This document shows, piece by piece, positions 1-42,084 of a DNA stretch of 64,000 nucleotides. How positions within the stretch are numbered: the first letter of the stretch is position 1; each line of letters opens with the position of its first letter. Origin of the DNA: Cenococcum geophilum (Eukaryota); the NCBI GenBank assembly GCA_050273025.1, contig CP158635.1, positions 10,850,001 through 10,914,000 on the forward strand, in the 5' to 3' direction. Position numbers and translations under genes: made by a program. Under the pieces are notes generated by a model, which saw only the letters and a program-made list of their open reading frames with translations, was not told the DNA's origin and searched no databases.

Positions 1-1566
1 CTTATAGTCCTCTATAAGCGTATTATTAATTATCTTAGCTAGCATATTTAGTTAGTAATTAAGCGGCAATAGGACCTAGATTCTAGTAGGATCCTACTAA
101 GGCGACCTAAGTTAATACTAGTATCGTACTAAGATAGTTAGGAAGGTTAATTTCCTAACACTACTAGGGCCTTATATTAGCAAAATACCGCCTATTATAT
201 ATTTAAGCGTAGTACAGGCATCTATTTGCTCTTTATTAAGTAGCAGTAAAACGGCCTTAAGGGCATTATTAACTAAGTTCTTCCTATACTTAGCGATATT
301 ATAGTTAAAGTAATTAATATACGGGAGATCTATAAAGTTATTAGATAGCGTAATTTAGCGCTTAATATAGAAACTGTCGCCTCCTTACTATAGGTGGTAT
401 AGAGTATTAATCTTTTAGGAGATTCTAACCTTAGGGACACGCTTAGTTACGAGATATTTAATACCCTATACTATAATTAGGGCCTTACTTAGGTTACCAA
501 CTATTATAAAGTTGTTACTGCTTAGGATATACTCTAGAGCAAATATAGGGTTTAGTATAAACTTATAACCCACCTATAGTTAAAAAATAAAAGTATAGTA
601 GTTATAGCCGGAGCTAAAGGGAGTAGTATTAATAATAACTTCTTCCTAGCTGGCCTAGCTATCTGCGTCTTTACCTAGGAATAAGATATTAATAATAGAG
701 TTAGTATAAAGGGCAAGACTATTAACTATTTAGATAGTAGCGTAGTAGACTTAGTTTGCGCTACCTAAGAAGGTAATAAGATAAATAATAGTAGGTACCT
801 AGGGGTTCTGATTAACGGCTTTAAGGCTCGCGACTATGGTATAGAACTGGACTATAAAATACTTAAGAACGCTATTGAACTAATACCTTACGGGGATTTT
901 ATATAATGGTCGGTCCTCCACTAAGAGCTATATACTAAGTTGGATATTTATATTATAGTTCTTCTACTAGCGACCTAAAGGATTATTAACGCTCTGCTGT
1001 TATAGGCTCGCGTTTAGGCTCGCGATATAACTATTAAGCTATTTAGTGCCTAGTGTAAAGAAGTAGACAACGACTATAGGATTATTTAACAGCATATTTT
1101 AAGCTTTATAGATTTGTGGTATAAACGGGCCGAAGTCCCTGTTAATAAAGAAGTACTTACTAAGTAACGTGCGCGTACCTAGTGTAAGTTTATTAGAGGC
1201 GATAATGAACCTAATATAGTAAAGTTATAGGGTTATAGTATCTTGTGGGAGAATATAAGTAAGATACTTAAGCGTAGTTAGACGTAATAGTTGTTAAGTA
1301 ACTAGAGAAGCAGTATTAGTAGTATTAACCTTAATATTACCGGCGATATTGGTATTTGTAAATCGGATAGACGCCGTCTTATATAAATAATAAGTAGGTA
1401 TTCTACCGGTCTTGTAAGACGCCTAGAATATAATACTATATGCTATAATATACTCTTTAATAATTTGCATAACAAACTAAACTATAAAGTAGTTATTATT
1501 TAGAAGCTAAAGTATATTTAAAGGTTCGGCTATTACGGAATTGCTGTCCTTTATATAGGTGTCTAG
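1..1566 (+). pseudogene. RIP-degraded ORF relic, 5' end outside window; weak resemblance to an SF2/SNF2 helicase C-terminal lobe
   Basis: Frame from 1261 reads LLSN*RSSISSINLNITGDIGICKSD..*IISR; stops are TAA/TAG as expected from RIP. Only loosely similar to helicase motif V. Confidence 0.3.
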
Positions 1567-2620
1567 ATTATCTACTAGGCTATCTACTACTAGATAGAAG
1601 CTGGCTGTATTAAGAGGTTTAGGTAATAGAGAGGTAGTAGTACCTAGTGCATCTACCTTACCTAAAGCGGTTACGGCGTCTATTACCTAAATTAAAGTAG
1701 GTCTACTTATGCAATTATTAATATTATACCCTATAACTCCGTAGTTCTTATATACCTAACTATAAAAGATAGTTTAATGGTCTAGGGAGCTATAGTTTAG
1801 GCAAGTTTACTTTTTCTTACCTAATAGCTAGGGACAGTCTCACTTTCTATAGCCTATAGCACTATATTAGTTACACGTTATACTAGGATAATTACTCTTA
1901 AGATAACTAGCTTCCCTATAATTATTATATATAGGGTTAAGGCAGTTAGCTTTAAAATAACTAGCCTTACTATAGCCGCGATAAAGTTAAAAAGCTTTCT
2001 TAAGAGGACAATCGGCGCGTATATGGCCGGTAAATAGATAAAGATAGCATTTTAGAGCGTTATTAGCCGAGAGGTATAGACTGCTAAGCTCTAGAAAAAG
2101 AGGCTCGTTAAGCGTAGGGCCCTTACTATTACCTTACAAGACACTAGAGCTTATAGTCGCTTTAGTTAAGGTAATTTTAAAAACTATAACGCCCTTAGCG
2201 AACTTTTTATAGTTACGGATATAGTTAACGTCGCAAGTTATAAAATAATTAGTAGGTAAGTCTATTTTAGTAGTAGGTTGTATTAAGCGGTAGTTTATAT
2301 AAACATATTAGTAGATATAGATTCTCTATTATATAGCTAAGGCTAAAGATAAGGTAGCTAACTTACTACGTTATAAGGCTCTATAGCTTAGATAGATCTA
2401 CGGAGGCACTAGTTATAGAGGTAGATGCTAGTAAGGTAGGAGTAAGGGTAGGTAGTTAGTAGAGTTAGGTTAACTAGTAAAGGTAAGGAAATAAGGCGCG
2501 CCCTAATAAAATTATATAAGTAAGGCCTTGGCGGTAAAGTATACGGTTATATACTTTATAGGTTAAACGCGTATAAGGGTAAATCTATAGTAATAAGACT
2601 AACCTATAAAGGAAGACGCG

Positions 2621-3865
2621 GTATAGTATAAGTTATAGGGACTACCCTACCTAGCCTATCTCTTAATATAGGCTAGGCGATAGTCTAGCACTATTAAGCT
2701 CTTATAGTTTATAATGCGAGTATATAGACATATAAAAGGGTAAGGGAAAAGAGAAGTAAGTAGTAAAGTAAAAGTACTTTATTATAGGCAGGCTAATTAC
2801 GTTATAGGTAAACGGAAACTTAAATACTATAATCCGTTAAAAATATCACTAATAAGCACAGCCTACCACTGCTAGAAAGTATAAGTCTTTTCCTCCCTTA
2901 ATTAGTAAGAGAAAAGGCATTATTAACTAAATAATCTTTTACTAGAGTATAGGGTAGAAAATAGGATATTATAAGACTGTATATAGTTCTAAATAAATCT
3001 AAAATAAAGATATTAAATTTAAGAGACTCTAACGTAATAAATACTATAGTAGAATACTAACCTTTTATATAACACTAAATAAATAAATAGTAAGATAAGT
3101 TAATATTACTAAGCGGCTAGATGCTAGTATATATAACATATTTACTATCCTAAAATACCCTAAAATGCTATAAAATGCCGCAAAATACTATTAATTATAT
3201 AAACTTATAATATAAAATATAAAACCTTTTACTACCTTTTATAGTAGATATACGTTTAAATAAGCACTAGATATTTATGCATAGATATAGATCCTGCGTA
3301 CTAGATAATTATTATTCTAAATAGACTTATCTAGTAGGCCCTTAAGTGCTATATAGTATAATAATAATACTAGCAATTATAAAGTAAGTATAATACGTCG
3401 CCGTCTACTAGAAGTACTACCTATTATATACTAAGTACTTTATAGTAATGGAGTCCGCATATATAAACATAGGCTAGCCCTATAACTCTAGTGGCGTGTA
3501 TATCTACCGACTTTATATAATAATAAGAAATATAGTAACGCCTATAATAAGTGCAATATATTACAATTTACTAGAAATACTACCTATTATATAGTAAACA
3601 CTTTATAGCAATAGAGCCTATACGTATAGATATAGGCCAGCCCTTTAACTCTAGCGGCGCGTATATATACTAACTCTATATAATAATAAGAAATATAGTA
3701 ACGCCTATAACCTCCTATATTCTACTATATTATAATAACTAGTTACCCCTTTATAGGCACTTAATAAATTGCTTATATTAAAAACTATAAGAGTTTAGCA
3801 GTACTAAACCGCCACCTAGCCCTAAATAGGCTAGGTAGGGTGGTCCCTATAAGTTATATAATTAT
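2621..3865. repeat. Inverted repeat pair (about 2621-2745 and 3742-3865)
   Basis: Reverse complement of 2627-2659 (ataggctaggtagggtagtccctataacttata) matches 3826-3858 at 31/33; 2671-2710 also pairs with 3782-3821. Confidence 0.8.
3406..3710. repeat. Direct duplication, about 142-bp unit with 163-bp period
   Basis: 3406-3547 and 3569-3710 align (tactagaaRtactacctattatata...ataataataagaaatatagtaacgcctataa); most differences are transitions. Confidence 0.85.
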
Positions 3866-4189
3866 ACCCTTATTTAACTATATAGTACTAAGTCTAGCTA
3901 TATTTACCCTAACTAATAGTAGTAAACTATAGCTAATTTTACCTCTATGCGGGCACGTGCGGGCAATTATAAGATTTACCTCTTTACCTCTTCTTAATTA
4001 ACTTTACTTATCCTACCTTTTATCTCTCCTATAACTAACCTCTAACTATATCTAATACTAGAGTTATACTAGTATACTACTAGCCAGCTACCGTATAAAG
4101 CCCTTTTACTTTAATAGTTACCTTCTACTTAATATATGCTATAATATTATATATACCTAATTAAATAAGCGACTTAATAATAATATAAA

Positions 4190-7100
4190 TATAGGTAAAG
4201 CTAGACGCGTAGTATAAGGCGAACCTAAAGCTAACTAAAGATGCGGATATTGCCTAAGGCTTTAAAATAAGTATTAAAAACTATAATAAACTAAAAGAGA
4301 CGGTTAAAGATATTGCGATTAAAGTTAAACCTAAGCACGTAATATATTGCGGTAACTCTATAATATTAAAAAAAGGGTATATTAAGGAGTTTTATAAGTA
4401 ACTCCTATAATTTACTAATACTCTACTAGATTAGAAACTACAGGTAATCCTAAAAATTATAGAAAGTACTTATTCTAATCACGTAAGGAGGGTACTAAGT
4501 ACCTTTAAGAGTGGGCGCGCTCTGCGTAAATATATATTACCCCTAAAAACCAAAGCATAAGACAAGATAATGCTACCTTAGCTACTATATATAATACAGC
4601 CTATAGACATTACTATAACCCTACTATATAGTATCCCTTCGCCTTAGCTAGTAACCCTAGTAGTAAGTAACATAATTAATATAGGAGATATTAAGATTAA
4701 AATTTAATTCATAGGCTTAATAGGTAGGTTAATAGTTAGGGTAGTTTAAGTCTTATATCTAATAAGCGGAAACCTATATATAGCTCTAGGCAAGCTATAA
4801 GAGGAACTATAAGCCTATATAGAGCTTAATATTAACGGTCCGCCCAAAAAGAATATCTATATATTGCTATAGAGATATAAAAACCTCGCAATATAGTTAG
4901 AGGGCATACTTATTATAGCTCTTAGCGAAATAGCAAGAAATAGTATAAAGGAGGCTATACTTATAGCATTACTTTCACCTCCTAGCTTAAACTCCTAAGT
5001 CGCTACTACTAATAATATACCGCTAGCTATTAAATCTAAGGCACCTAGACGTAATAGACGTAGCGTAAAAAATAGCTAGTAAGTCCTAACGCCGTATAAG
5101 GTTAGCGATAAGAGTAAATTAGGAGAAAGTAAGAAGTAAAGTTAATTAGGATTAGCAGTATATAGCTCTAAGGAAGGTAGTAAGGGTAAGCCTATTAGAT
5201 ATAAGAAATCGGATAATAGTAAGACTAAATTAGGTAGATATAATAAGTGGCCTTAACTAAAATTAGTAATAAGTACTTTGGCGGAAGATAATAAAAGCAA
5301 GCCGGCCGCGCCTAGGAAGTTAAATAGTTATAAGGCCAGCCTAAATAGAAGTAGGAAATGCCCTTAAGCAAAATTAGCGGTAGATACCCTTATAGAAAAC
5401 AGTAATAATAAGCCGGTTATACATAGAAGGCAATTAGTAAAGAGAAGACGTAACCTATTTACCTATAAGCCTACATTAGAGAGTAACAGCGGTACTAGAG
5501 AAATTACCGTAGATAACGGTAAATCGCCATAACCTATTACTGAACCTAAAGGTATATACTAGCCTAATAATGTAATAGACGACCCTACTACCGCATCGCT
5601 AACTATTAATACCCCTTAAGATATTACCATAGAGGATAGTAAATTGCCGTAACGTACTAGTAGATATAATAATTAGTTCTTATATTACACTAACTTTAAA
5701 AACACGGAGAGTAGAGATAAAGATAAGGATTTAGTTAATAATAAGGACTAAGACAAGGATTTAGTTAATAATAACGACTAAGATAAGGATTTAGTTAATA
5801 ATAACGACTAAAACATAGATGTAGAGGAAAAGCTTAACTAGTAATCTTTTTTAGCCCAGCTTTAGAAGGCTAGGAAGGATAACCTAAATAGCGTACTAGC
5901 GTATATAATGGAGGCGGATCTTTTACTTACTCTAGAGTATTTCCTACTTATTTTATTAAAAGTACTCTCTAAGACCACCCTAATCGAACTCCCTAATTAG
6001 GGCCTCGTATTAGGCTTTAAATTTAGCCTATACTAAGTAGTATATATAGCTTAGGCATTTAAGCAAGAGAGGACAATTAAAGGAGGCGGTATCTGTGTAG
6101 ACGAACCTGGCGCGGGCAAGACTATATAAATAATTACTTAATAGCTAATAAACTACTTTTATTATTAGAATATAATAGATATTTAAGAGGCCTAAGCCGC
6201 TAGGGACGTAGCCCGCTACCTACCTAAGATACATCCGCCGGATATAAAATACCTATAAGTAGTAAAGCAGCCGATTATATACTACTGCGAAGACAACTTT
6301 AAGAAACTATACCCTACAGATCTATAGTAAGGCTACTTAGTCGTCCTTACGCTAACCTTGGGCCTGCTAGGATTCCTAAAGAACACAAGTGCAATATTAT
6401 AAGACGGCGCGATTATAAAGCGCCCTAACCCGCCTTAGATTATAATTCTCGCCCCTAGCTATAATAAAGTTAAGATATTTAGTAAACTAAAAAAGGATAA
6501 ATAGCCGTAAATCTATAAGGCTCTTAAATGGACCAATAAGGAATAATAGGAGAAAAATACTAATATATATCTGGTTGGCAAGACTCTCCTATTATACCTA
6601 TAGGGTAAAGCTAGGTTTAAGAATAATTATTACCTTACCCCTAATGCGACAGAACTATTAGCGCTAAGATACTTAACCTAATTCCTTCTAATTACTATAC
6701 GAAATTGTATTACCACATAACTAATACGCGGGTTTATTACTATATAAACTAGTATATAGAAACACCTAAAGGGTAAAACCCCTAAATCGTATTAGAAATT
6801 AAAGAGTGTAATATAGGTTAGGCGTATCCTCTAGGATAAATGCCACCTAGACGTAACCGGTAGAGTCTTAATATCGTTTATTAAGGATGTAGTTAAGGAG
6901 TACTATATCGCGTATAATCGCAGCCCTACTATATAGGGTATATCTGGCACGCTTAATAACGGGAACCTAATGCAACTAATACGGTTTATTATAGCAGGAT
7001 TAAAGAGGCCTAAGTAGGAAGAAGTAGATAAGCTAAAGGGAACGGAGTTTAAAGTACTGCTTAAGCTTAAAGAAGAAAACATCTAGCTAAAGAAGAAGGA

Positions 7101-8250
7101 ATTTAACCGTCTCTATAAGGATATAAAGACTAACCTATCTAAAGTAATAGCAAATAAGAAATTCGGCGAACTAGCTATATTTTTCCGTATAGTTATTCTA
7201 ACGTTTTAGATATATAAAGGGGAGTTAACACTCTAGTTTAACTAGTAAAAGCTTATCCTAAAGAACAGCTATTTTAAATTAGTTACGTTATAGGCCAACC
7301 CTAATAACACTAAGGCGGCTATAATTATAGCTATAGAGGACTAAGTAAGGATAGAGTAAAGGCGCCAATATAAGGAACTTCTGGCTATATAGGAGGAAGA
7401 TAGTAGCGATCTAAATACTAAACCTAAGATACTAAAACTTACCTAAGCTAAGTTATATACTAACGCGAAAACGGCAGTAAGCGTAGCTTAGGTTGTCCAA
7501 TACTGGGACTAGTATACCCCTATTATAATCGAGTCTAATAAGTCTAATAAGTCTAATAATAAACGCCTAAAAACTTAAAGTTGCATACTTAAGGACCTAA
7601 TTATCGCTAAGTGGACTACTAACCTACTTAGTAAGAAGTTCACCAATATACTTAACCGCTATTTTTAATAAAATACAAAGTTCTTTAAAGCTAAAAAAAT
7701 CTATAATTACGTTTATGACGAAAATGGACAAATGGTTTAGCGTGTAAGATTATTATTACTACTTACTTACCTCTTATACTAGCTTATTAGTTTAATAGGC
7801 TATATAAAGAATATAGCGAAGATAAGGTGCTCCGCTATACAGCCAGTATATCTAATATTAAAAAGGCTGAGGCTAGGTAAACCTTTAATACTAATAACTC
7901 TAAGTAGATCCTACTTTGCACCTTTACATTAATTAGGCTAGCCATTAACCTATAGCGCGTAAATTATACTATTATGGTTAAGCCAAGCTATAAGCTCTTA
8001 GAGGTAAAGTAACTGTTTACTTAAATAGATTAACGAGGATAGACCGAGCCTATTTGCTATAGTATTATTATAGCTAATTAGAAGTCGAGTATTAAGTAAA
8101 GGATATTAAAGTTAACTAAATTTATATCGTTACTGCAGAAGTTGGTGTATAAGGAGAAGGCCAATTTAAGCTTAAAAGTAGGCTAAGGTAAGAAGGAAGA
8201 CACTAAGACTATCTAATGCTAGTAACGATTATAAGAGTATAATATAACTA
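4190..8250 (+). pseudogene. SNF2-family (SF2) ATPase/helicase relic; helicase core about 5950-8100, with a probable low-complexity N-terminal region
   Basis: Motif I GGGICVDEPGAGKT (about 6082-6123); motif II RIL*DKCH, de-RIP RILWDECH (about 6822-6846); motif III *GISGT (about 6934-6951); motif VI-like EPSY...Q...R..QRGQ (about 7980-8045). Many RIP stops; start and end approximate. Confidence 0.75.
5721..5811 (+). repeat. 30-bp tandem repeat x3, originally coding an acidic DKDLVDD-like unit
   Basis: gataaggatttagttaataataaSgactaa repeated three times. Confidence 0.8.
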
Positions 8251-8587
8251 TAGATAGTTCTAAATACTATATATAGTTACTATATAGCGAAACCTATTAT
8301 AATTATATAGTGGTATATATACGGGCTAAGGGATGTGTCTTCTAGTAACTTATAAGTAGTAGCGTAGCGTATATAGTAAACTTAGTTAAAATATTTCCAG
8401 TATTATTATTTCTAAGAGAGTATTAAGCTATATTACGGGACTAACACGCGTTATTATAATTTGGCTTATAAGCGTACGCGTATATATAAGTATAAACTTA
8501 ACCCCTAAGCAACGCGTATATATACTACCTTACCTCCTATATAGATCTTTACGCGACATTAATCATATACTTTTACCTTATACCTTA

Positions 8588-8650
8588 ATAGTCAGCTTAT
8601 ACTGTAATAGTCGGCTTATACTATAATAAGCGGCTTATACTGTAACAAGC
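8588..8650. repeat. 19-bp tandem repeat x3
   Basis: Units like tagtcggcttatactRtaa repeated. Confidence 0.7.
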
Positions 8651-8679
8651 TGCAGCTTGCAGCACTATTATTATTAAGG

Positions 8680-9169
8680 CAGCGTTTAGCCGCAAAATGC
8701 AACTAAATGCGGCTAAATGCCGAAATTGCTAGATTAGCATAAACCTAACTTAAGATACTAGTAAATTTTTTCATAATGCTAGAGCCTTAGCGAGATTTTT
8801 ATAGGGGTAGTAACTTTAATATTTATTAATAATATATAAAATATAAAATATAAAAATTATTAAAATTACTAAAATTATAAAATTATACTTTTATGCATGC
8901 TTACTAATATTAATAAAGTATATATAAAATATAAAATTTATAAAATTTATACTTTTATATATGCTTAGTAATCTTATAATTAGCGCTTAGTAGCTAAATG
9001 CTAAGACTTAATTATAAATGCCGTATTTAGCCGCTAAATGTAGCATTTATAACTAAGTACTAGCATTTAGCTGCTAAATGCTAGGAAATGCTGGAAATGC
9101 TAGGAAATGCTAGGAAATGCTAAAATGGCTAAAAAGTAAAAATAAATGCTGGTAAATTTTTTCCTAACG
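8680..9169. mobile_element. Right terminus of a large TIR-type element: AAATGC subterminal repeats and two copies of a terminal motif
   Basis: atactagtaaattttttcataatg (8755-8778) and atgctggtaaattttttcctaacg (9146-9169) resemble the ...aaatttcctgatg end at 42806. Arrays of gctaaatg/ggaaatgct lie at 8685-8720 and 8990-9125. Confidence 0.5.
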
Positions 9170-9479
9170 TAGAACGTATAATTATCTAATTAATAGTATA
9201 GAATAAGAGTTATAGGTAAGTAGAAGATAAGTTAGGGTAGAACGATCTTTATAAATAAAGGATAAATGCTTTCTAACCTCTTCTATTTAGAGACTAATTA
9301 CTAGCTCTTCTCTAAAGGAGAACTAGCTCCCTATATGATTTTTCTAAAACGCTAGTAAAACCCTTTACCCCTTATCTATCTAACTATGTCTTTTAGGACG
9401 TAGATGGAATATAGATAGGATATAGATAAAACCTCCTACTGTCTTATCTAATATATACCTTCTAGGGGATTCCGTTATA
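9170..9479 (-). repeat. 3' LTR of the 9170-21653 element
   Basis: Near-identical to 21340-21653; ends ggattccgttata (RIP of TGTAACGGAATCC on -). Confidence 0.9.
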
Positions 9480-11284
9480 ATTGCCTCCCCTTTAAGGGTC
9501 TTAGTCCTTTAAGACTTTACCTCTACTAAGCTTTTATAGAGTTCCGGCTAAAACTACTAGGGAAGATTCTTAGTGGAAAGGTACTTTATAATACGGCTTA
9601 TAGCTAGTTCTTTATTAGCGTAGAACTTTACTTTATCTTTAGTTCCTCCGCTCTTCTTCTACTATAGCTTTTTATAATGCCTTTATAATAGAACTAAAAT
9701 AATAATAATAAAAATTAGATGGGATTTACCTTTCTTATTATAAGAGTTTGTTATAAGTTAATTTAGAGGTTATCCTATACAACGCGTCTATAAGCTACTA
9801 TTCCTATTTACCTAAAATAGGTTCTAATAATAACATCTTAATTTTAATTTCTTCTAGTTTATAAGCTGTTGTCTCTTACGCGTCTTTTTATTAACAACAC
9901 TATTTGTCTTATCTCTTAGCAGACTATTTTTACTATATCTTAGCTTTTAGCTTCTATATCTCTAGCTATTCTTTTATAACTGCTTTATTCTCTTCTTATA
10001 ATACATTTATAAATAATAGGATCCCTATTTTATCTCCGTTAATAATACTAACTTCTTATAATATTCTCTTATAATGTCTTATAGTTATACTGCGCGTTCC
10101 CTAACTAGCGGCAATATTGTTTTAGTGCTACCCTAGACCACCTCTATTGCTCCTATAGTAATCTCTTTAAAGTGCTACCGTTATTATATTTACGCGCTTA
10201 CGCTAGACCTATCTTACGCCTATAAGATGCCTTACTCTAATAAAAACAAATCTAAGTATTCCTATTGCCGTAGTAGAAGAAAGACTTATATTTTAGTATT
10301 TTCCATTCTATTTTATTCTAAATTTTACTAATTATATTAGATCCCCGCCATTTATATATATAAGACTTATAAGCTCTATTACGCCATTTAGGATTTCCGC
10401 CTATATTTAAAAATAGTAATAGATAAGGATAGAAGGTATCTACCCTTGCTTATAGGCTCTTTAATTTAATAAGGGTTTCCACTATTATAGAGACGTAATA
10501 ATCTCGGATATATAGTATTTAAGAGCGTATATGCGAGTAGCTTACCCTTATAAATAATAACATTTATACTCTTACGTGGGCCTTTTTAGCTAGGTAAGTT
10601 TCTCTAGTAATATATTTAGGAACTATACTAACTTTCTTAGCTAACGGCTTTTAGATCCCTATTTAAATACTAATCTATCTATCGCAGTCACGTGAGGGGA
10701 TATTTAATTTTTGTATAATTGGGAGGCGTAGGGCTATAAGGTCGCTCTAGGGCTAGTTCTTAGCAGTTTTACTAGTTCCTAGCACTTAAATCTGCTAAGG
10801 ATTTGCCCTAAAGCGGCTAGATGTCCCCGACCGTAAGCCTATAGCTATAAGACTATCTAACTGTAGTAGTCGCATTAAGGTTGGCTCTTAGTAGTTTTAC
10901 TAGTTCCTAGCACCTACTAAAGAATTACCTTAAAGCGCTATCTATATATAATACATACTAAGTATAAGGGATGGCGGGTGGGGAAAGCGAATTAGCTACG
11001 TAGTGACTGCGTTTAATATTCGCGAATATTACAGGAGGTCTTAGCATTGTGCGTTGCTAAGGTAGATGCTGCCAAGCAATATATAGACGCTAGTATCTAT
11101 CTATCACAGTCACGTAAGGGGATATTTAATTTTTGTATAATTGGGAGGCGTAGGGCTATAAGGTCGCTCTAGGGCTAGTTCTTAGCAGTTTTACTAGTTC
11201 CTAGCACTTAAATCTGCTAAGGATTTGCCCTAAAGCGGCCAGATATCCCTAAGCGAAGCTCCTGCGCCCAATAAGACATTACCG

Positions 11285-11427
11285 TATTCTGCTATATTCT
11301 GCCAAATTCTACCACCTTATTGCATTCTGCTAAATTCTGCTATATTGTCGCATTCTGCCAAATTCTACTATATTATTATATTCTGCCAAGTTCTGCTATA
11401 TTATCGTATTCTGCCAAATTCTACTAA
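11285..11427. repeat. Degenerate tandem repeats (attctgccaa/attctgctat) in the Ngaro 3' region
   Basis: Repeated ~10-bp units visible directly. Confidence 0.75.
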
Positions 11428-11589
11428 CCCTAAGTTATAAGCTAACCAATTAGGATTTTCTATGCCCGGTATAGAAAATCGCTATTAGCTTGCTTACCAC
11501 TAGCGCCTTAGCGGCCCTCTTAACATCTTAACCTACTATATAGTAATCCTTACGCTAAGAGCGGTACACTACGCTAAAAGTAAGAGTTA

Positions 11590-12600
11590 AGGCGATGGAG
11601 GTTAGTAGTTTTAGTCCTAATATATAGGCGAAAGGCTTCTAATAACCACCGACCTAGCTACTAAATTTGTTAATATAAACACCCTAAATCTTTAGCGAAC
11701 TAGGCAGCGCCCTAGCGGAAGGAGTAGTTTAAGTAACTATTTAGGTTAATCCTAGCAGCTACTAAACGGGAGAAAAGGATTTTGCGAACCCCTAGAGAGG
11801 TAAAGGGTTTACTATTAAGACTGAATAAGGGAAAGTTAAGGGGTTAAGGGTCCCTATTAAACAGCTTTATTATAGCAGTGACTGGGCATAATAGGCCGCC
11901 TACCGCCGCGATGGCGACGTTAACGCCCTAGTGTTACTTATCGGCTTTACTCTATTTAAGGCGGAATGTTATCCTACTAGGCGTAAAGGTGATATTATAT
12001 TGAGTGGCCTTTTTTGCTAGGAAGGTCGTTCGGTTCTTAAGCTCCGCCGTAATATACATAATTTCGCCTATCTATAGAAATCTAGTAAATGCGAGGGTAA
12101 ATGCGGTATTAGTATTAATATCTAGTAGCGATGGGCTGTATATCACTACCTAGGCTAAAATATCCCTAGTAATAGGTTACTTATCCTTTTTTGCTAAGGG
12201 AGAGATAGCGGCTACTCCGGTGAGTAATCGGTATACTATAGGATCCTTAAATACTGTAATTAAGATGCCGTAATCCACGTAGCGCGAGCGAATTGCGGAG
12301 ACGTAGGCTTATAAGGTTTCGGCCTTAAGCCTGCCTATTTATAGCTAGGAGGTACTAAACGCGCGGCAGGTAATCTATTCGCCTAGTTTATACGGCTTAG
12401 CTAGGTAGGGGGAGACTCCTTTAAGTGCGTAGTATAACTCCTAGCTGTTAACTGCTAAGGAATAGTTTCTACGGGTTACTGGCGTAAGGCTGTTCTAGAG
12501 AAGGAGCGCGTAGAGGTTAGATAGCGCGTTAATATTATCTTTAAAGTTTATAGGCGGTTGTAAGTAGTCTATTAGGTTTACGGCACCTATTAAAAACTTA
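11590..12600 (-). pseudogene. Tyrosine recombinase of the Ngaro element
   Basis: Reverse complement of ~11700-11735 reads YLNYSFR*GAA, de-RIP HSFRRGAA (HxxR motif), followed by a LGRW-like segment. Confidence 0.85.
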
Positions 12601-12699
12601 TTAGCTTTAGTAGTAATAAATTAAGGGCCTAGTATAGGCAGAACTAATAGATAGCCGCGGCCTAGAATTAAGATAGTGTATTAGCTAAGCTATTTAAAT

Positions 12700-14250
12700 C
12701 ACCTAGGATCTACTTCGCGGATATTATAATATCGTGAGCTATAGCAGCTAGCATAATCTTGCGGAGCGATTTGTTTACTACGCTATAGATAACGGTATTC
12801 TTGATGCCCTGGTAAACCACTATACTATTAGTATAAATAGATAGCGCGCTATACTGCTAGTTGGTAGACCATAGATTAAATACGTAAGTAATAGTATACA
12901 TCTCTTTCGGATTAATATAGTCTACTTATTAACTAGGCTTAGGTAATATACTAAACGCCTAAGATTAAGGGAGGTTGGCTATATACTACTGCTAGTTATC
13001 CTCGTATTTAAGTTCCTTAAAAAAAGTAAAAGCCGCTAAACCCGAACTAGGTAGAGGTATTAGTAAAGAGATAAATACGGGTACGCTTAACGTCATTAAA
13101 GAACAATACCCTATTACTTATAGTAAGTAGGTTAAGCCAGATATATAAGTTACTTTGTAACTTAGTGCTAAATTACCTAAGTTTATACTTATTTGCCAAA
13201 GTCTCTAACTAAGCAGTAATAAAGATCTAGAGGGATTTAGAGTAAGATTAACCAAGTCTAATTATATAGGCGTACTATATAAGGTAGCCCACAAGCTACT
13301 AGGCTTAAAGGAACAATAATAAGCCGTATTAGAGTGCGGTAGTGACTTTCTTAATAGTACGTGATTGTTTCTATGGTAATAATCGCGTTTGCATTTATAC
13401 GGTGTTAATAGTATATCCTAGAACTTTAATAACAGTTCCTACTATGTTTTTAAAGCCATTTTAAGGGATACCTAGGAAGTTAGTAATAGAGATATAAGTC
13501 TAGGTAATAGCCGCTAAGTTATTCGGGTTAGCAAGGATAAAGATAAAGTTATCTAGGTAGTATTCTACCTCGTAAGGTAGTTGTAAATAGAGTATCCAGT
13601 ATAGGCCTTCCGCGAAGAGGTTAAATATAAGCGGCGCAGTTTGAAGACTAAAGGATAGGTAGTATTCCTAGTAGGTAATACCTTCCTAGGAGAAGCCTAT
13701 TAATGTTCTTACCCTATAAAATAGGGGGACTATACGGAACGCGTCTTTAATATCTCTTTTAAGCAGTAGATATCCACAACCTATAGAAATAACGTGGGCT
13801 TAAATAGCGGTAACTATAGTATATACTAGTGCTCTATATTCTTCTAGGATTGCGTCATTAACTAAAAATGCTAGTAGAAAGGAGAGATTATAAATTCAGC
13901 GGTATCCTCTATCCGATTTTGGCACTAGGCCAAGAGGTAAGACTATAATAGGCCCTATCGCAATTCTAATATATCCTTTTTTAAGGTCTAATATTATCTT
14001 CTTAGAGATAAGGTCGGCGTTATCCTAAGAGGAGTTATAGTTCCTATAAGATCTTGGGGTAGGGATAGACTTAGCTCCTATCTCGCAGCTATAGGTTAGG
14101 ATGCCTACTAAGGTGGCTAGTAGATTACCTAGGTAGTTAGATAGAAGGGAGTGCCACGCTAAGATCCTTAGGGGCGATGGAGAGTAGTAGAGAGCCTTCG
14201 CCTTTATAAAGGTAGAGAATAATAGTAATGTATTAGGCCTAGGTCCTAGG
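12700..14250 (-). pseudogene. Reverse transcriptase/RNase H of the Ngaro element
   Basis: KRDIKDAFRIVP (~13727-13760), LSFSLQTAPLIF (~13625-13660), YLDNF = YLDDF (~13546-13560). Confidence 0.88.
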
Positions 14251-14339
14251 CATATAATTAAAGTTAGTGTTATTATTAGGCTAGACCCTACTTTATAAGG
14301 TTCGCCTTACTATTCCTAAGCGCAAGCTTTAGATAATGC

Positions 14340-15200
14340 AGTGTAATCTTTACTATACTTTAAGCACTTATATGGGTATTTACAAGCTATATTATTACAG
14401 CCTCTACTATTAAACCTATGGTAGGTATTAGAGGTATAAAAGGTATCCGACCTAGGTCTCTTTAAGGCGGCAAAGCCAATAGCACTAGACATTGTAAGGT
14501 ATAGCGCTATATACTAGGCTAGTATTTGCCAATTAGCGGGCTCTAGTTGGCCATTAGTTATTATAAAGGTATAATAGTTGAGTGCTAAGTTAAGTATATA
14601 ACCTCCCTAGATATACTGGGTTAATAAGGTACAAATTGTGTTTATCTAAAGAAGTATACTAGCGATAAGGTCTAGCGGGCATATACAGAGGGTGCTAGTA
14701 ATAACTACGTAGTTAGTAAAACCTTTAAACCAGACGCCTTTATCTGCAAATAGCTTCCTATCTACCTTTGCCTTCCTTATAACTAGAGTACCATTCTTAA
14801 TCCATATCTTATCGGCGATCTTAATTTAAGTAGTATGGACTTAAAAACGGGCGAGGTTTACTAGATTAAAGGTACCCTTAAAAATGTCCAGGTAATCCCT
14901 TTTTATAACGCTAGGAAGGCGGAGTTCGAGTGACTTTACGCCAGAAGGGAGAGGCTTACTAAGAACATCAGCTATAGTAGCTATTATAGTGGCCTGTAAG
15001 GCCGAAGCGGCTAAGCCTAAATATAATTAAGCCATTTGAGCTAGGTGGTATTTATACTAGTAAGCCTCCTCTACTAGGCGGGCTTTACGCTCTTCCTTAT
15101 ACTTCTAAATCTCCCTTTTATCTTAGGCTTGTTCCCTTTACTTTTTAGTAATTTTACGCTCTTTTACGGCAGCGGCGCGTATATTAGCCTTAGACGGCAT
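14340..15200 (-). pseudogene. ORF1 (gag-like) of the Ngaro element
   Basis: ATG at 15200 near the 5' repeat; C-terminal Cys/His-rich stretch at ~14350-14430; position upstream of RT. Confidence 0.55.
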
Positions 15201-16299
15201 TATAGAACTAGTGGAGGAGGGTATAGCGGTTATAGACGATGGTATAGTTAAGGTAGGTCGTCTAGGTAGGTTTGCTTATTGGGATTATGCACGCATATAA
15301 ATCTCCCAGTTAGTTATAAGCGGTAATAGCGTTATAAAATAATTCTTAAACGAATGGATGATAAATGTATAATAAATATTAATAAGTTTAGCGATATTGA
15401 AAGCGAATTAGCCACGTAGTGACTGCGTTTGATATTCGCGAATATGCAGGAGGTCTTAGCATTGTGCGTTGCTGAGGTAGATGCTGCTAAGCAATATATA
15501 GACGCTAGTATTTAAAGTTTAGGGATACTAAGGATAGTAATAAAAGTTAAGATAAACGTTTTCCTTACTAGTTTCCTACCTGTGCTAGTCCTTCCAGCTC
15601 CTATTATACTAAGAAGAATATTAGTATAAGTGCTAATACTTTTAGGGATAGAAGTCCCAATAATACTATTAATAATAATATTAAGATAGAAGGGGAGGCT
15701 TCTATTACTACTGCTAGTATTTAAGTTATTATTTAGTTCTTCCCTTCTTTTTATAAAATAGCTTTATATAGTGCTTCTTAGGTGCCTCTAGGATGCCCTA
15801 TTATTAGGAATTAACTTTATACTTTAAGGATGCCTTTATTTTAAGCTTCGGTAGCAATTTATATAAAGGCAGTATACTACTATAATCCCTATATATAATA
15901 AACAGGTAGTGTTCCTATAGGTGCTTTATAATTTCTTAAAAATTTTAATTCTTTATAGGCTGTCTTTTTACTCCTCTTTATACTATTAACTTTACTATAT
16001 ATCTCTAGTGCCAAACTAAATACTCCCCTTTTATTCCTAGGGGTCCTTTTAAATCCCTAAGACCTCTTTTTATATTACTACTACTTATTCTTAAATAGCG
16101 TCTTTTTTAGATAGTATCCCTAGTAGTTCTCCTATAGATTTTATAGGCTTCCCCTTATAGGGTTCTAGGATCCCTATTATAATAGCAAAACGTTTCCGTT
16201 TTTAATGCCTATACTTAACCTTATAGTTTTAATTTATAGGGTCTTCCCTATTATTTTATCTATGGTATATCCGGAACTATTACTAAATTTTTACCTTTA

Positions 16300-19200
16300 G
16301 TCCTTAGAAAGGTTTTAATTGCTATATTATATCCCGGCTAAAGGTACTCTTTAGGTTTCTAACTATTATATACCTAAGAATATCCTTCCCAATAGATTAA
16401 GAATTTGCGCTTTTTTAGCGCCATCTTTAGTCTAGAATGTCTTCTATATTCTATTCTAGTTCCCTATTAATTTTACTAGGGGGTAGTAGTTCCGCACTAT
16501 CTTTTCTCTAATATAGCTCTAGTAAGGAAATATAAAATAATTTATAGGCTTAATTTCCTTTAGTTTTCCTAACTATTTTAAAGGGTCCGAGCTACTAGTA
16601 ATCTAGCTTCTTCTTAATACGTTTTATTTAGATATTTTTTATAAATAGTAAGACTTTGTCTCCTATCTTAAATTCTTTTAGTATATATTTTTTGTTATAG
16701 TACCTTTTTTACACAGCCTAAGCGTCTAGTAAGTGCTTTTTAAGTTCTTCTCTGCGAATTCTTATTTGATTAATTCTCTTAGATACTACTAGTGCCTCCC
16801 TTTTAGGAATAATATCCTTAACATTCTAAGGGTTATTTACTTTTACCCTAAACAATACTTTATAAGGGGTCATTTTTATACTGCTATAAATACTTGTATT
16901 ATATACGTATTACGCTAAAGTTAACTATAATATCTAATTATCCTATTAATAATTAATATAGCAGCGGAGGTAGTATTCTAATAACGTATTTAGACGCTTT
17001 ATTAGCCTATCTATTTATAGGTAAAAAGCGGTGCTTATCCTTTGCCGTATTTTTAATAAAAGACAGAATAAAGACTAGAATGCGCTATTAAATATAATAC
17101 CTCTGTTAGATATAATTCCCCTTAGTATGCTAAATAAAAGCTACTGTTTTAAAAATAGGTCTGCTAGTTCTGCTGCTGTAATTATTATTATAATAGTAAA
17201 GTACCCTAAGAACTTTATATATCTATTAACGATTACTAGAATAGTATTAGTAACCTCTCCCGTTCTTATTTTAGTAGGGGTAAGCCTATTATAAAATCTA
17301 TTATTAATTTTAATATAGGTCCCTGCGGAATAGAAAGCACTAATAACTTACTATATAGGCAATATCTAGATATTTATACCCTTTAGTACGTATTATATCT
17401 TAATATATACTCCTTAACCTCTTTAGATATTCTATTCTAAAAGTATTTCCTTTAAACGGCCTTAAGGGTTTTATTAGCACTATAGTAACCCCTAAAAGGG
17501 TTATTATAGAAAACCTTTAAAATTTTATCATAAACCGCTTGGTCCTTTAGGATATATATAGCACCCTTAAAGCGCAATAAACCCTTTTAGTCTTGCTATT
17601 ATAGCTTTTTAGTAACTTTAGCTAAGTTGGTCTCTACTATATCTTTCCACCTCTCCTTAGAAATAAAGGCGTCCCTCTATTATACTTAAAGAAGAAGATT
17701 TAAAAAGGTTTTATATAGATTGCTTACTTCTATTTTATCTACCGCTATTATAAATATAAGGTATAGCATAAAATATTTTAAACTATTAGTGCTAGTAGAT
17801 TCTCCTACTATTATATAGTATGCTACGCTACAGATAGGTATCTTACCTATCCCCTTTAGATCTAGACACTTATAGCTAATACGCCATTAAGTTAAAGGTG
17901 CCGCAATACCCCTAGTATATCCTATAGAATTCTCGCTAATTCTAAGGTATACTAACTTTATAATATCTACCTAGCCTATAACCTAGTCCGTAACTATATC
18001 CTACGGCTTTATAATTATAGCGCTTTATAGCTATATTGCCGGGACCTCTACCCTACTATAAAATTCTATAATTCTAGGGAAAGAGTCTTTTTTTTTTAAG
18101 CAAATTTTGCAATCTAGGGATTATTTCCCCTGTGCTGTTCTAGATCCTTCCTGTCTTAAAATCTAGATATTTTAATAACCTATTAGTGGGATTTATCTTT
18201 CCTAGGCGGTATATAATCTTAAAATCGTACTATAATAGTGCCTCTACCTATCTAGCTTATTAACCGCTTAATACCTTTATAGTTATAAAGTATTCTAGGT
18301 TGTTATGGTCTGTAAGGACTTTAATAGGGTAATTACTTCCCATATAATAATATCGCTAGTATTTTATTGCTATAACTATTATAAGTAGCTTCTAGTTATG
18401 TATTATATAATGCTATTTTATAGGGGTTATTTTCCTTAACCAAAACGCTATAGGATGCTATTCTCCGTCTTTTAATTAAGATATAATTGCCCCTAGGGCA
18501 AAGCTGGATATATCCGTTTTAAGGTATATATATAGCTCTTAGTAGAAGTATATTAGGATAGGCGCTAACGTAAATAAATCCTTTAACCGGTCTATAGCCT
18601 ACTTAGCAGCTTCCCTAAATATAAAGGGTCCTAACTTCTTGCTATTCTTAGATCCTTTTAGTAGATTAGTAATTAGGAGTATTACTTATAAATAGTAAAC
18701 AATAAATGTTTAGTAGAAGTTCGCCGTGCCTAAAAAAACCTATACTTCTCTAAATATTATAGGGTAGGGCTATTCCCTAATGGCGTCTACCTAACTTTTC
18801 TCTATTAACACTCTATTAACGCTAATAATAAAGCCTAGAAAATTAATGCTAGTAGTATAAAACGTGCACTTTTTTAGGTTTATATAGAGCTTGTATTCCT
18901 ATAGTCTTTTTAGTACTATTTATATATAATATATATATGCTTTATAGTTATTAGAGTAAACTATAATATTATTAAGGTAGACTATATATATTGTGTCTAA
19001 CAGGCCTAATAATGCCTTATTAATATAGGCCTGAAATATCGCCGGTATATTAGTAAGCCTAAATAGTCTTACTAGGTACTTAAAGTGGCCGTACTATATT
19101 TAAAACACCGTTTTCTACTTATCGCCAGCTTTAATCTAGATTTAATAGTATATATCCTTTAAATCTAATTTCGTAAATATTTTTACGCCTAACAGTTTAT

Positions 19201-21290
19201 TAATAAGCTCCCCTATTAAGGGTAATAGGTAGCAATTCTTTATAGTAATCTTATTTAGCGCTTAATAGTTAATATAGAGGCAAAGGGTCTTATCCTTCTT
19301 GGGTATAAATATAATTGGTGCCCCTACTAAGCTTATAAAGGGCCGAATCCATTCTCTCTAAAGATTATCTACTATATATTAACGTAGTACCGCTAGCTTA
19401 TTTTTTAATAGGTTATATAATAGTCTAAAAGGAGGTTATTTATCCCCTATGTCTATCTTATACTTTAACCAGTATAGGGTTAGGTAAGGTTTATATAGCC
19501 TCTTTACTAGAAATATCCTTTAAGTCTATATATTCCTATAGAATCTCTAGTTCCTTAACTGTGTATAGCTGGATATCCAAAAATAAATATCCTATATCCC
19601 CGTTCTTAGTGTTAAGAGTGGTATATATAGTATATACCTACCCTTCTTCTTATATATAGTTTAAGAAAGTCTTTTAATCTTTAACTATAATACGTGGTTA
19701 AGACTTTTAATATTAATACGAGGCTAAAGGCTAATTAATGTCCGGATTAACTTAGTAAAGCTATAGGTATCCTAAAATAAGGTTATACCCTTTGATTTCT
19801 ACGGCACAGAAGTATATCTCCTATATATTCTATAGACTATTGCGGTTCTAGCTAGCTATAGAAAAAGCCTATTCCCTATAATATAGAATTTAGTGGCCTC
19901 CGATGCTTTAAATAGTGCGTACTTATAAGCCGCTAAGGTCTAAATCTAATTCTTTTACTAGTAATTAAGAAATAAACCCTATAGTTACGCCGCTATCTAT
20001 AAGGCAGTCTTATATTACCTATTTATTATTAACTTAAATAGAGACAGGAATAACTATACGGCAGCTTACTCCCTCCTTTTCTTACTAGCCCAGTATAAGG
20101 GAGTAAAGATCTACTAGGCTCTTTCTTTTCCCAATTAATCTAACTCTTATTTCTTTTACTAGTAGAAGTACTTTATATAGCCCTTTTTACCGCAGTTATA
20201 ATAAACGCGTAACTCTTAGTTCCACTTATTTAGATTAGGTTTTTGCCTATTATTATTCTAGGGCTAACTAGCGTTACTTTAGGGCTTTAAAGCCTACTTA
20301 CGTTATTCTTTTATAGAGTAGTTACGTCGGAATCTACCCCTATTATTAAAGCTACGTCTAGTCCTACGCTCTTTATTATTAGCGTCTCGTTTCTTTTACT
20401 TACCTAAATAATCTCTTTTAGCATTCTTAATCTAAGTAGCTTTAGAGATAAGCTTTTCTTAAGAGGTAGGAATTTCGCCCTTCTCCTATATAGCCTATTA
20501 AATCTTAAGTTATAACTTGGCAAGTAGCTGGTAAAGTTATATAGTATTATCCTATAGGTTTAAGTAGGGTATATTATTTTCTAGTTCTTCTAAGTAGTTT
20601 ATAAACTAGACTACACTCTAGCCTTCTTGCTATTTAGTATTATAGTATCGCTAGTTATAATCCATCCTTTAATTAGTAAGGTCTTAGACCTAATTAACTA
20701 ACTAGAACTTAAGTTCGCTAAATTTAAGGGGTATAGTAAGTTTCTTCTTATAGCGTGTCTATAAACTCTTAACAGTGCCACGCAGGAAGGTAAAAGTAAT
20801 TAGTGTCTAATTATACTCGTTAGAGTAACATTTTAGATCTAGCTAAAACTTAGTTTTATATTAACGGATAAAATAATTATAGTTCCGGAGACTATTACCA
20901 TAATACTTATTAGGTTCCTTTATATAGAATTTAGGTTTTTTTAACGTTATAGCGTAGTATAGCGTTACCCTATTAAGTCCGCTTCGTGTCTAGGGTGTCT
21001 ATACTTCCCCTAATTATCCTTATAATTATTCTTAGTAGTTTTAATATACTTATTTTAATCGTATCTCTAATTCCTTTGTTTTTTATACGGTCTTACATAG
21101 CGACTACTTTAATAACTCCCTAGCGGTAATTATTTTTAAGGGTCTTGTAAGGTTAGATAGACTAGCCGTAGCTTCTTTATAGGAAGAGGGAATGCGCTCC
21201 TCTAGGGAGACTCTCTAAGCCTCTTATAGTAGGGGCGTCGTTTTAGGGGGTAAGGAGGTATAGCCCGTTATTATTAATTAATAGCCATAC
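16300..21290 (-). pseudogene. gag-pol (PR, RT, RH, IN, chromodomain) of the 9170-21653 element
   Basis: Domain motifs in Gypsy order on the - strand, broken by RIP stops. Confidence 0.88.
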
Positions 21291-21339
21291 GTTCCTTCCG
21301 TAAAGGATTAAGAGTAATTAAAATTATAAGAGGCTAGTT

Positions 21340-21653
21340 TAACCGGAACGTATAATTATCTAATTAATAGTATAGAATAAGAGTTATAGGTAAGTAAAAG
21401 ATAAGTTAAGGTAGAACGATCTTTATAAATAAAGGATAAATGCTTTCTAACCTCTTTTATTTAGAGACTAATCGCTAGCTTTTCTCTAGAGGAGAACTAG
21501 CTCCCTATATAATCCTTCTAAGACGCTAGTAAAACCCTTTACCCCTTATCTATCTAACTATATCTCTTAGGACGTAGATGAAATATAGATGGGATATAAA
21601 CAAAACCTCCTACTGTCTTATCTAATATATACCTTTTAAGGGATTCCGTTATA
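21340..21653 (-). repeat. 5' LTR of the 9170-21653 element
   Basis: Direct repeat of 9170-9479. Confidence 0.9.
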
Positions 21654-21712
21654 AATAGCAATGTCTAATATAATTAATTAACTACGTTATTTCCTACCTA
21701 GTTCGGACGTAT

Positions 21713-40922: not shown

Positions 40923-41012
40923 AAACTGTACGAATTGTAAAAACTGTACAAATTGTAAAAACTGTACAAATTGTAAAAACTGTACAAATTGTAAAAACTG
41001 TACAAATTGTAA
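40923..41012. repeat. 18-bp tandem repeat x5
   Basis: aaactgtacaaattgtaa units. Confidence 0.9.
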
Positions 41013-41184
41013 CTATATGTAACTATATAAATTATAATTATATTACATAATAACCAAATTATCACATATTCCCATAGATTTCTATAATATACTTTTAAAT
41101 ATATTTATATTATAACTATATAAAATGTAGAGCTATCTACTTTGGGCGTCAAGGGGGAAGCCTCTCGCAGAGACTCTAAATCAT

Positions 41185-41191
41185 CTACCTA

Positions 41192-41230
<39 letters not shown>

Positions 41231-41385
41231 ACCTACATGCCTACCTGCCTGCCTGCCTACCTGCCTACCTGCCTACCTGCCTGCCTACCTGCCTGCTTGC
41301 CTACCTACCTGTCTGTCCGTCCGTCTATACCTACCCGTCTATGCCTACCTATCTGTGCCTACCTGTCTGTGCCTAACTGTCTATG
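41185..41385. repeat. (CCTG/CCTA)n microsatellite
   Basis: Seen directly; the RIPed counterpart is at ~32585-32795. Confidence 0.9.
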
Positions 41386-41446
41386 TCACCTTGATTCGAT
41401 CGATCGATCGAATCGTTTATCGTGTTCGCTGGCTGGTCGTTTGAAC

Positions 41447-41912
41447 GGTTGTCGTGTGGCTCTGGCGACGGTCGTGTGGCGATGACGACGGTCATCTGGC
41501 TCCGGCGACGGTCGTCTAGCTCTGACGACGGTCGTCTGGCTCTGACGGTCGTCTAGCTCTGGCGACGGTCATCTGGCTCCGGCGACGGTCGTCCAGCTCT
41601 GGCGACGGTCATCTGGCTCCGGCGACGGTCGTCTAGCTCTGACGACGGTCGTCTGGCTCTGACGGTCGTCTAGCTCTGGCGACGGTCATCTGGCTCCGGC
41701 GACGGTCGTCCAGCTCTGACGATGGTCGTCTAGCTCTGACGACGGTTGTCCAGCTCTGACGACGGTCGTCTGGCTCTGACGACGGTCGTCCAGCTCTGGC
41801 GACGGTCGTCCAGCTCTGGCGACGGTCGTCCAGCTCTGGCGACGGTCATCTGGCTCCGGCGACGGTCGTCTAGCTCTGACGACGGTCGTCTAGCTCCGGC
41901 GACGGTCGTCTG
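41447..41912. repeat. 21-bp minisatellite (gctctggcgacggtcgtcta-type)
   Basis: More than 20 units; counterpart at ~32860-33250. Confidence 0.92.
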
Positions 41913-42084
41913 CTGGCTGTCGTTCTGGTGTCTTCCTAGGTAGGGAGGATGTAAGGAAGGGTAAAAAATGAGGTGGCTACCTAGGTGTATATAGGGGTAT
42001 ATTCCGTACTTGGCAGAGGCACGTGTAGAGGCTATCGGGAATATAGCGGGGACCCGATAGTAGTGTGTCGTGCGCACACACAAA

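Follow-up and report, generated by a model that had tools for sequence, protein, structure and literature searches.

We analyzed a stretch of 64,000 nucleotides of Cenococcum geophilum DNA (assembly GCA_050273025.1, contig CP158635.1, positions 10,850,001 to 10,914,000 of the forward strand), which we call the window and whose first letter is position 1. Its left part, from position 1 to ~8640, carries the relics of two helicase-like genes, here called gene A and gene B, that are heavily damaged by repeat-induced point mutation (RIP). We regard this region as probably the right-hand portion of one copy, dead and mutated by RIP, of a repeated unit of two genes. The unit would be selfish, multi-copy, ~10–12 kb in size and limited in its coding content to two motor proteins. 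The region is not a proven transposon with inverted ends. In the proposed unit, two long, intron-free genes would face away from each other. Gene A would encode six CCHC zinc knuckles, a middle region of ~490 amino acids and a UPF1-like superfamily 1 (SF1) helicase. Gene B would encode a very divergent SNF2-like DExH ATPase, preceded by a small helical domain, a beta-grasp-like domain and a long linker that is charged and disordered. Nothing in the window copy is functional: neither gene retains its start codon, and the reading frames are broken by 125 in-frame stops (85 in gene B and 40 in gene A) and one frameshift.

RIP-degraded, AT-rich blocks of plant-associated fungi are usually dismissed as unclassifiable repeats. 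The relic described here is unreadable to Pfam and was made readable through surviving intact relatives. It exposes a conserved two-helicase unit, neither of whose proteins has a name or a known role.

Relics of two helicase-like genes

Positions 1–10 kb of the window are AT-rich (GC content 0.28–0.36) and TpA is abundant throughout, which is the appearance of RIP-mutated fungal DNA. Only six stop-to-stop open reading frames (ORFs) of at least 60 amino acids occur in positions 1–12000, and the longest has 78 amino acids. The density of stops per frame exhibits a triplet pattern, in frame +1 (and its antisense) at ~4200–7800 and in a minus-strand frame at 1–2400. Pfam detected no family in any of the six frames of 1–9600 (0 families in 6/6 frames), and thus no transposase or recombinase, although RIP damage limits this direct test. 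The relics were identified by translating them with X in place of every stop and searching for intact public proteins, which are referred to below by P numbers.

Gene B (4180–8216, plus strand) is a complete but dead gene for an SNF2-like DExH ATPase, colinear with intact proteins of 1328–1332 amino acids. Its start codon is now ATA instead of ATG at 4180, and its reading frame is +1 up to position 7722, where a 1-nucleotide frameshift leads into frame +3 and to the stop codon at 8214–8216. The alignment with the intact protein has no intron gaps and just two small length differences, both at tandem repeats, where the intact proteins vary as well. The relic's translation matches the intact 1328-amino-acid protein P0001 with E=0 (1536 bits, 61% identity, 87% coverage). 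Aligned with P0010, it yields 1326 residue pairs that are 63–68% identical and 85 in-frame stops.

P0001 belongs to the SNF2 family by Pfam's scores for SNF2-rel_dom (27.2 bits; cut-off 24.9) and Helicase_C (27.3 bits; cut-off 23.5), both barely above the cut-offs, and it is through these cut-offs that gene B resembles the SNF2 ATPases. The relic itself attains just E=0.033–0.074 (12.6–13.7 bits) for SNF2-rel_dom, over 30 residues at motif I. A search of the Protein Data Bank (PDB) with the relic's translation gave no helicase match and nothing related, and P0001 had no match among PDB sequences at E<=1e-3.

A first-pass annotation of the window, made from its letters alone, had proposed an SNF2 ATPase relic with motifs I, II, III and VI. 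The match to P0001 bears this out, and all four motifs could be mapped on the plus strand. Motif I (Walker A), DEPGAGKT, is intact in the relic (6100–6123). Motif II is DECH in intact homologues and DKCH in the relic (6835–6852), motif III is SGT (6943–6966), and motif VI, which lies in frame +3, is IDRRGQ in intact homologues and IDXRGX in the relic (8025–8042). Among 11 aligned family members, Walker A (GxGKT), DExH, SGT and motif VI (QxxxRxxRxGQ) are nearly invariant.

The N-terminus of the gene B product is also conserved among relatives. A fold predicted for the N-terminal 523 amino acids of the SNF2-like protein has a low mean confidence (predicted local distance difference test, pLDDT, 52.1) and includes two confident small domains, a helical one at residues 7–110 and a beta-grasp-like one at 161–265, which are followed by ~300 charged, disordered residues. 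The best Foldseek hit for these N-terminal domains was a PB1/beta-grasp domain (E=6.1e-3), with none at E<=1e-3, so the resemblance of the predicted structure to PB1/beta-grasp domains is only a lead. Inside the ORF, tandem repeats occur at 5103–5431 and 5710–5820, with units of 111 and 30 nucleotides. These repeats code for the charged linker and vary in copy number from one intact public variant to another.

Gene A runs on the minus strand from 2265 to 1 and off the left edge of the window. The first-pass annotation had noted a possible helicase-like relic at 1–1566. Its nature as a helicase stands, while its extent needs revision, since the relic reaches 2265, is on the minus strand and continues beyond the window. 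The window contains the first 761 of ~1355 codons, and ~1.8 kb of the gene lies outside. The start codon, at 2265–2263, has changed from ATG to ATA. The translation matches the 1355-amino-acid protein P0163 with E=2.2e-285 and 59% identity (446/761), covering 94% of the queried region, and it aligns to residues 1–761 without a frameshift. Aligned with P0164, it has 755 residue pairs, 63% identical, and 40 in-frame stops.

The domains of P0163 are several zf-CCHC knuckles, AAA_12 (71.6 bits) and AAA_11 (22.1 bits), the last of which is under its cut-off (27 bits for both AAA families). Among solved structures, its helicase core matches UPF1/NAM7 (E=6.7e-13) and its knuckles match Air2 (E=4.5e-9). 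By sequence, gene A thus resembles UPF1/NAM7 and knuckle proteins of the Air2/CNBP type. The part of the helicase within the window is the N-terminal portion only, to just beyond Walker A, which is GPGGVGKSTF in the intact protein and GPSSVRKLTF in the relic (142–171, minus strand). The six CCHC knuckles were counted in P0164, and its residues 72–186 place them at 1708–2052 on the minus strand of the window. They have decayed through Cys>Tyr and Gly>Ser/Asn changes, as in KCYLYLFTGHIRADC (2052–2008, minus strand).

A knuckle such as KCYLYLFTGHIRADC could come from a retrotransposon Gag protein. We rejected this candidate, as the frame matches a knuckle-helicase protein over its full length, and the protease, reverse transcriptase and integrase that a long terminal repeat (LTR) retrotransposon's gag-pol frame would have after the knuckle were not found in the gene A frame. 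The ~490-amino-acid middle region of the SF1 protein may hide a nuclease. A predicted fold of the first 896 amino acids of P0167, another SF1 protein, was unusable (pLDDT 28.8).

Protein atlas annotation is at the family level alone for both genes, namely SNF2-like for gene B and AAA_11/AAA_12 with CCHC for gene A. The product of gene A is not orthologous to any known housekeeping helicase, and neither is that of gene B, which is a very divergent SNF2-like protein.

RIP damage

RIP acts only on DNA that is present twice in one nucleus, and its leakage into unique DNA fades over about 1–4 kb. We scored RIP in a codon-by-codon alignment of each relic with intact proteins, in which mismatches were sorted by whether they can be explained by C>T/G>A changes or by the reverse changes only. 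In gene B, compared with P0010, C>T/G>A changes alone explain 453 of the 482 mismatched codons, and the reverse alone explains 7. In gene A, compared with P0164, these counts are 275 and 4 of 282. Thus, in both relics, 94–98% of codon mismatches are of the RIP type and 1–2% are reverse only. The non-RIP differences that are left number 29 of 1326 codons in gene B and 7 of 755 in gene A. When RIP-type changes are discounted in these alignments, the ancestor of the relic would have been ~98–99% identical to the intact forms, which suggests that the intact forms are living members of the same family.

The damage is even. The fraction of changed codons per 400-nucleotide bin is 0.32–0.43 in the SNF2 gene and 0.29–0.45 in the SF1 gene, with no gradient from either side. 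Dinucleotide indices agree: in all segments of 1–8760, TpA/ApT is 1.7–2.4, (CpA+TpG)/(ApC+GpT) is 0.12–0.45 and the composite RIP index is 1.2–2.3, and the indices are high in genes, spacer and 3′ flank alike. In 161 windows across 1–8600, (CpA+TpG)/(ApC+GpT) is 0.30±0.07 with a maximum of 0.49. Given this even load over more than 8.6 kb and the short reach of leakage, it is likely that the block itself was duplicated, i.e., that it existed in at least two copies. The idea in the first-pass annotation that the genes belong to a multicopy element is therefore upheld as far as repeated DNA is concerned, though not as regards a TIR-ended element (TIR, terminal inverted repeat), and RIP leakage, which it mentioned as something that can happen, does not fit damage that is even across both genes.

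The noncoding parts of the block are a spacer between the divergent genes (2266–4179; composite RIP index 1.36–2.27) and the 3′ flank of gene B (8217–8640; (CpA+TpG)/(ApC+GpT) 0.23), which ends in three 19-nucleotide tandem units (8577–8645). Within the spacer, a block at 2607–3876 is bounded by an inverted repeat with arms of ~110 nucleotides that are 89% alike in purine/pyrimidine (R/Y) space, and it contains a 163-nucleotide tandem duplication (3383–3548 and 3546–3711). This block could be native, as a palindromic promoter region, or an insertion resembling a miniature inverted-repeat transposable element; no clear target-site duplication was detected around it.

Intact relatives and pairing of the genes

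We drew clusters of public proteins from JGI/IMG, ENA and Logan, resulting in 12 members for P0001 and 13 for P0163. The SNF2 cluster includes six distinct full- or near-full-length variants with 94–98% identity to P0001, and its members overall are 93–100% identical.

In four cases, the longest contigs have equal sizes across both clusters. A size of 20005 is common to P0002 and P0164, each on 3 contigs, 12438 to P0004 and both P0166 and P0167, 11654 to P0010 and P0174, and 19995 to P0011 and both P0170 and P0172. These coincidences of size suggest that both genes occur on the same contigs, and the two helicase genes thus appear to travel as a pair. Two of the shared contigs measure just 11.7–12.4 kb and yet hold both genes (~8.1 kb of coding sequence plus the spacer), which would leave little room for a third gene. 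The members from the 19,995-bp contig (P0011, P0170 and P0172) have broken ORFs, and their differences from the majority are RIP-directed by 11:1 and 8:3. This suggests that a lightly RIPped copy of the pair exists in public data outside the window.

For gene B, a full HMMER scan of 1.84 billion representative proteins with P0003 (C-terminal 911 amino acids) as the query retrieved just 262 at E<=1e-3, of which 20 reached E<=1e-30. Full-length relatives have 28–51% identity. Helicase_C is present in 12 of 15 relatives and SNF2-rel_dom in 9 of 15. The named relatives come from Lindgomyces ingoldianus, Kalmusia sp., Plenodomus lindquistii, P. biglobosus, Mytilinidion, Coniosporium and a Phaeosphaeriaceae species, and all are hypothetical proteins of Dothideomycetes, mostly Pleosporales. 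The gene B family is therefore small and divergent, and is not a housekeeping remodeller.

No transposase, integrase or nuclease family was detected in the 15 relatives of gene B, and no transposase in the intact proteins P0001, P0163, P0167 and P0174. In P0163, P0167 and P0174, there was no match to Helitron_like_N, PIF1, DDE or other transposase families, and for Helitron_like_N and PIF1 this was true even at E<=1.

The right edge of the relic

The RIP signature switches near position 8640. An un-RIPped island follows (8641–9169) and consists of two direct modules (8670–8778 and 9011–9169) around an AT-rich palindromic stretch. The ratio (CpA+TpG)/(ApC+GpT) is 1.12 in 8601–9169, with 1.89 and 1.75 in the two modules, versus 0.19 in the adjoining LTR. 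With RIPped blocks on both sides, the un-RIPped island is most readily accounted for by a later arrival, and 8641–9169 is probably a separate, younger piece that is not part of the helicase unit.

Immediately to the right is the 3′ LTR (9170–9480, minus strand) of a Ty3/gypsy retrotransposon that occupies 9170–21654. This LTR, which sets the right limit of the helicase finding, has 311 bp. Its twin at 21344–21654 is 94% identical to it, and 100% in R/Y space. A polypurine tract, AAAGGGGAGGCAA, abuts the LTR at 9481–9493 (reverse complement). The pol region lies on the minus strand at ~16.5–19.3 kb and encodes RVT_1 (4.3e-17), RNase H, an integrase and a Tf2-type SH3 domain. The target-site duplication is ambiguous, as TAACG (9165–9169) and TAGCA (21656–21660) correspond only with a 1-nucleotide shift and in R/Y space. 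Position 9169 is thus the edge of a gypsy retrotransposon and not a demonstrated terminus of the helicase unit. The first-pass annotation had placed the end of the RIPped repeat at 9169 or 8778, which conflicts with a RIP signature that stops near 8640 and with 9170 being the first base of the gypsy LTR. In the reading that we favor, both the tail at 8641–9169 and the LTR at 9170 would be later neighbors of the helicase unit.

Comparison with known systems

By analogy in gene content, the closest precedent for the unit is X3X3R8 of Stagonospora (Parastagonospora) nodorum SN15. Its description (Hane & Oliver 2010, PMC3017866) is of a repeat of 26 kb whose gene content is made up of three Rad5/SNF2-like helicase genes, one Rad6-like gene and two unknown ones. 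As portrayed there, X3X3R8 is likewise a large, multi-copy unit of helicase genes that include SNF2/Rad5-like ones, in a host from Pleosporales, the order to which most of the named relatives belong. Further, most of its copies are RIP-degraded, some ORFs are intact and no transposase was identified in it. The gene contents differ, in that the three Rad5-like genes of X3X3R8 are accompanied by a Rad6-like ubiquitin-conjugating enzyme, whereas the window has a CCHC/UPF1-like gene and one divergent SNF2-like gene, with no ubiquitin-conjugating enzyme seen.

Helitrons (Rep plus a Pif1-like helicase), AcademH and KolobokH are mobile elements with their own helicase, as the two-helicase unit may be. 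The order of the parts of gene A, with zinc fingers, a middle region and an SF1 helicase, loosely recalls the RepHel protein. However, the gene A helicase is UPF1-like rather than Pif1-like, and the combination of Rep (HUH) and Pif1 that defines a Helitron was not detected in P0163, P0167 or P0174. AcademH and KolobokH carry DEAD/Helicase_C helicases, as stated in PMC10799480.

Telomere-linked helicase elements (Y′ of yeast and the TLH/RecQ-like genes of fungi) are also repeated units that consist mainly of a helicase gene. According to bioRxiv 721753 and PMC4522978, subtelomeric helicase repeats need no transposase to multiply and undergo RIP in sexual fungi. Telomere-linked helicases are of the RecQ or DEAD type and lie beside telomere repeats, whereas the window has SF1/UPF1-like and SNF2-like genes and no telomere repeats. 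bioRxiv 721753 also reports, from mini-chromosome 11 of Colletotrichum higginsianum, a protein of 1,276 residues that scores weakly for Helicase_C and SNF2_N. In size and scores, this protein is similar to the gene B family.

In the full-text literature, exclusive of the primary description of AcademH, we found no described repeat unit that pairs a CCHC/UPF1-like gene with an SNF2-like gene. What turned up was limited to X3X3R8, general remarks about AcademH, KolobokH and Helitrons, and subtelomeric helicase repeats, while papers on KDZ in Cryptococcus and on a TE burst in Zymoseptoria had no bearing on the unit.

Origin of the unit

Our preference for a selfish, multi-copy unit derives from its being repeated, compact, intron-free, patchily distributed and nameless. 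Judging from what is known of their families, a living gene A product would combine an array of single-strand-binding knuckles with a 5′–3′ helicase of the UPF1 type, and a living gene B product would be an SNF2-type translocase on double-strand DNA. The unit might multiply by transposition with help in trans, by transport inside a larger element or by ectopic recombination.

A model along the lines of the first-pass annotation would instead be a single TIR-bounded DNA transposon of more than 9 kb that ends at 9169 or 8778 and is the large, autonomous relative of certain 2-kb elements in the window, with the helicases as its cargo or accessory genes. These 2-kb elements have the CATCAGG TIR, and in the window their family has termini at 32196/34153 and 40702/42806, along with an internal, inverted copy at 42579. 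Each island module ends in the 18-mer GTAAATTTTTTCMTAAYG on the plus strand (8761–8778 and 9152–9169). The reverse complements, CGTTAGGAAAAAATTTAC for 9152–9169 and CATTATGAAAAAATTTAC for 8761–8778, can be compared with the TIR, CATCAGGAAAT(9-10), and the reverse complement of the 18-mer has 8 of its first 10 nucleotides in common with the TIR CATCAGGAAA. The succession of terminus, GCAAAT-type motifs and AT-rich tandem repeats is also similar to that at the left end of the 40702 element, and the subterminal repeats that the first-pass annotation had noticed are real, both the direct and the inverted ones. When the tail was aligned to the 2-kb element in a RIP-tolerant way, the score was 136 versus a shuffle mean of 94 and maximum of 126, which is marginal. 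A 25-nucleotide subterminal match with 19/25 identities, together with the GCAAAT/AAATGC motifs, hints at a distant relation.

However, all five true termini have a GGGGCACGTTGTTGC-like core after an A/T run, and this core is missing at 9169 and 8778, which share with them just C[A/G]T[C/T]A[G/T]GAAA and an A/T run before diverging. The degenerate pattern that we searched with had been written to include both sites and also matched two unrelated places, and 8 of 100 shuffles give at least two matches to the 18-mer. The CATCAGG-like sequences at 9169 and 8778 are present as claimed, but their value as evidence for a terminus is weak. The alleged kinship with the 2-kb elements comes down to ~8 nucleotides plus short GCAAAT/AAATGC-type motifs. 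No inverted partner of the 18-mer exists in the 64-kb window, neither the region nor its intact counterparts yielded a transposase or recombinase domain, and the left end is not in view, as gene A is cut by the window edge. An un-RIPped tail next to heavily RIPped genes is a poor fit to one element mutated as a whole, and 9170 is simply the start of the gypsy LTR. We therefore consider the TIR-bounded transposon unlikely. That the genes are cargo is likewise unproven, as the two helicase genes may be the whole coding content of the unit.

It is somewhat easier to imagine that the pair is a host gene cluster that multiplied by segmental duplication or ectopic recombination in regions rich in repeats or at chromosome ends, as proposed for X3X3R8 and for telomere-linked helicase genes, and was then RIPped, and we see this as a possible, if still rather doubtful, origin. 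X3X3R8 is interpreted in PMC3017866 as an endogenous cluster, with 9 copies that have gene models, and helicase-bearing subtelomeric repeats are reported in bioRxiv 721753. The failure to find a mobility enzyme in the intact proteins or the 15 relatives also agrees with a host cluster. On the other hand, the window has no match to (TTAGGG)3 with up to 2 mismatches, its helicases are not of the RecQ type, no relic of a ubiquitin-conjugating enzyme was seen in it, and a family so tiny and patchy is more in line with a selfish or horizontally moving unit than with a conserved host function. It is very improbable that the relics are two ordinary, single-copy host genes destroyed by RIP leaking from neighboring transposons. 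The genes are single-copy within the window and adjoin a RIPped gypsy element in an AT block rich in transposons, as leakage would have it, but 29–45% of codons are changed in every 400-nucleotide bin over more than 8 kb with no gradient, an un-RIPped island of 529 bp separates the genes from the RIPped LTR, and several intact variants exist elsewhere.

Several observations weigh against the selfish two-gene unit. Neither blastn nor a transition-blind R/Y comparison found a second copy of 1–9169 in the 64-kb window; the latter was run with stringent settings, as BLAST statistics break on a two-letter alphabet. The linkage of the genes on outside contigs is deduced from identical contig sizes, and the 12–13 members per cluster could be strains or species instead of paralogues. 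The search for ends, a target-site duplication and a mobility enzyme gave nothing, and, since the window edge truncates gene A, further genes may lie to the left. That the tail is un-RIPped may partly reflect its repetitive AAATGC motif. The signs of a selfish unit, which are repetition, patchy distribution, long intron-free ORFs and short contigs, are indirect.

A bolder version of the selfish unit is that the pair is the complete coding content of an undescribed element that is restricted to Dothideomycetes, has no classical transposase and multiplies via its own nucleocapsid-like CCHC/UPF1-type helicase and divergent SNF2-type translocase, with living copies still circulating. The intact, near-identical ORFs in several public assemblies are what suggests living copies. 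We rate this version as a long shot.

If the unit is mobile, it brings a combination of genes that no described helicase-bearing element is known to have. As a host cluster, it would be a second case after X3X3R8 in which helicase genes were amplified and then sacrificed to RIP. Either way, more than 8 kb of “dark” repeat gain a usable annotation, and the idea of a TIR transposon that ends at 9169 is corrected.

Additional features to the right of the relic

The un-RIPped island contains a perfect 14-nucleotide palindrome, CAAGCTGCAGCTTG, at ~8646–8659. In the gypsy element, the distance from pol to the 3′ LTR is overlong at ~7 kb, probably as a result of nested insertions, e.g., the repeats at 10673–10827 and 11095–11249.

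The window contains two copies of the 2-kb element with the CATCAGG TIR, at 32196–34153 and 40702–42806, one of which is RIPped and the other not (GC content 0.51). Each copy is flanked by the same 2 bp on both sides (TA/TA and AC/AC), a hint that the target-site duplication is 2 bp long. In the 40702–42806 copy, the right end is a foldback with the internal inverted TIR at 42579.

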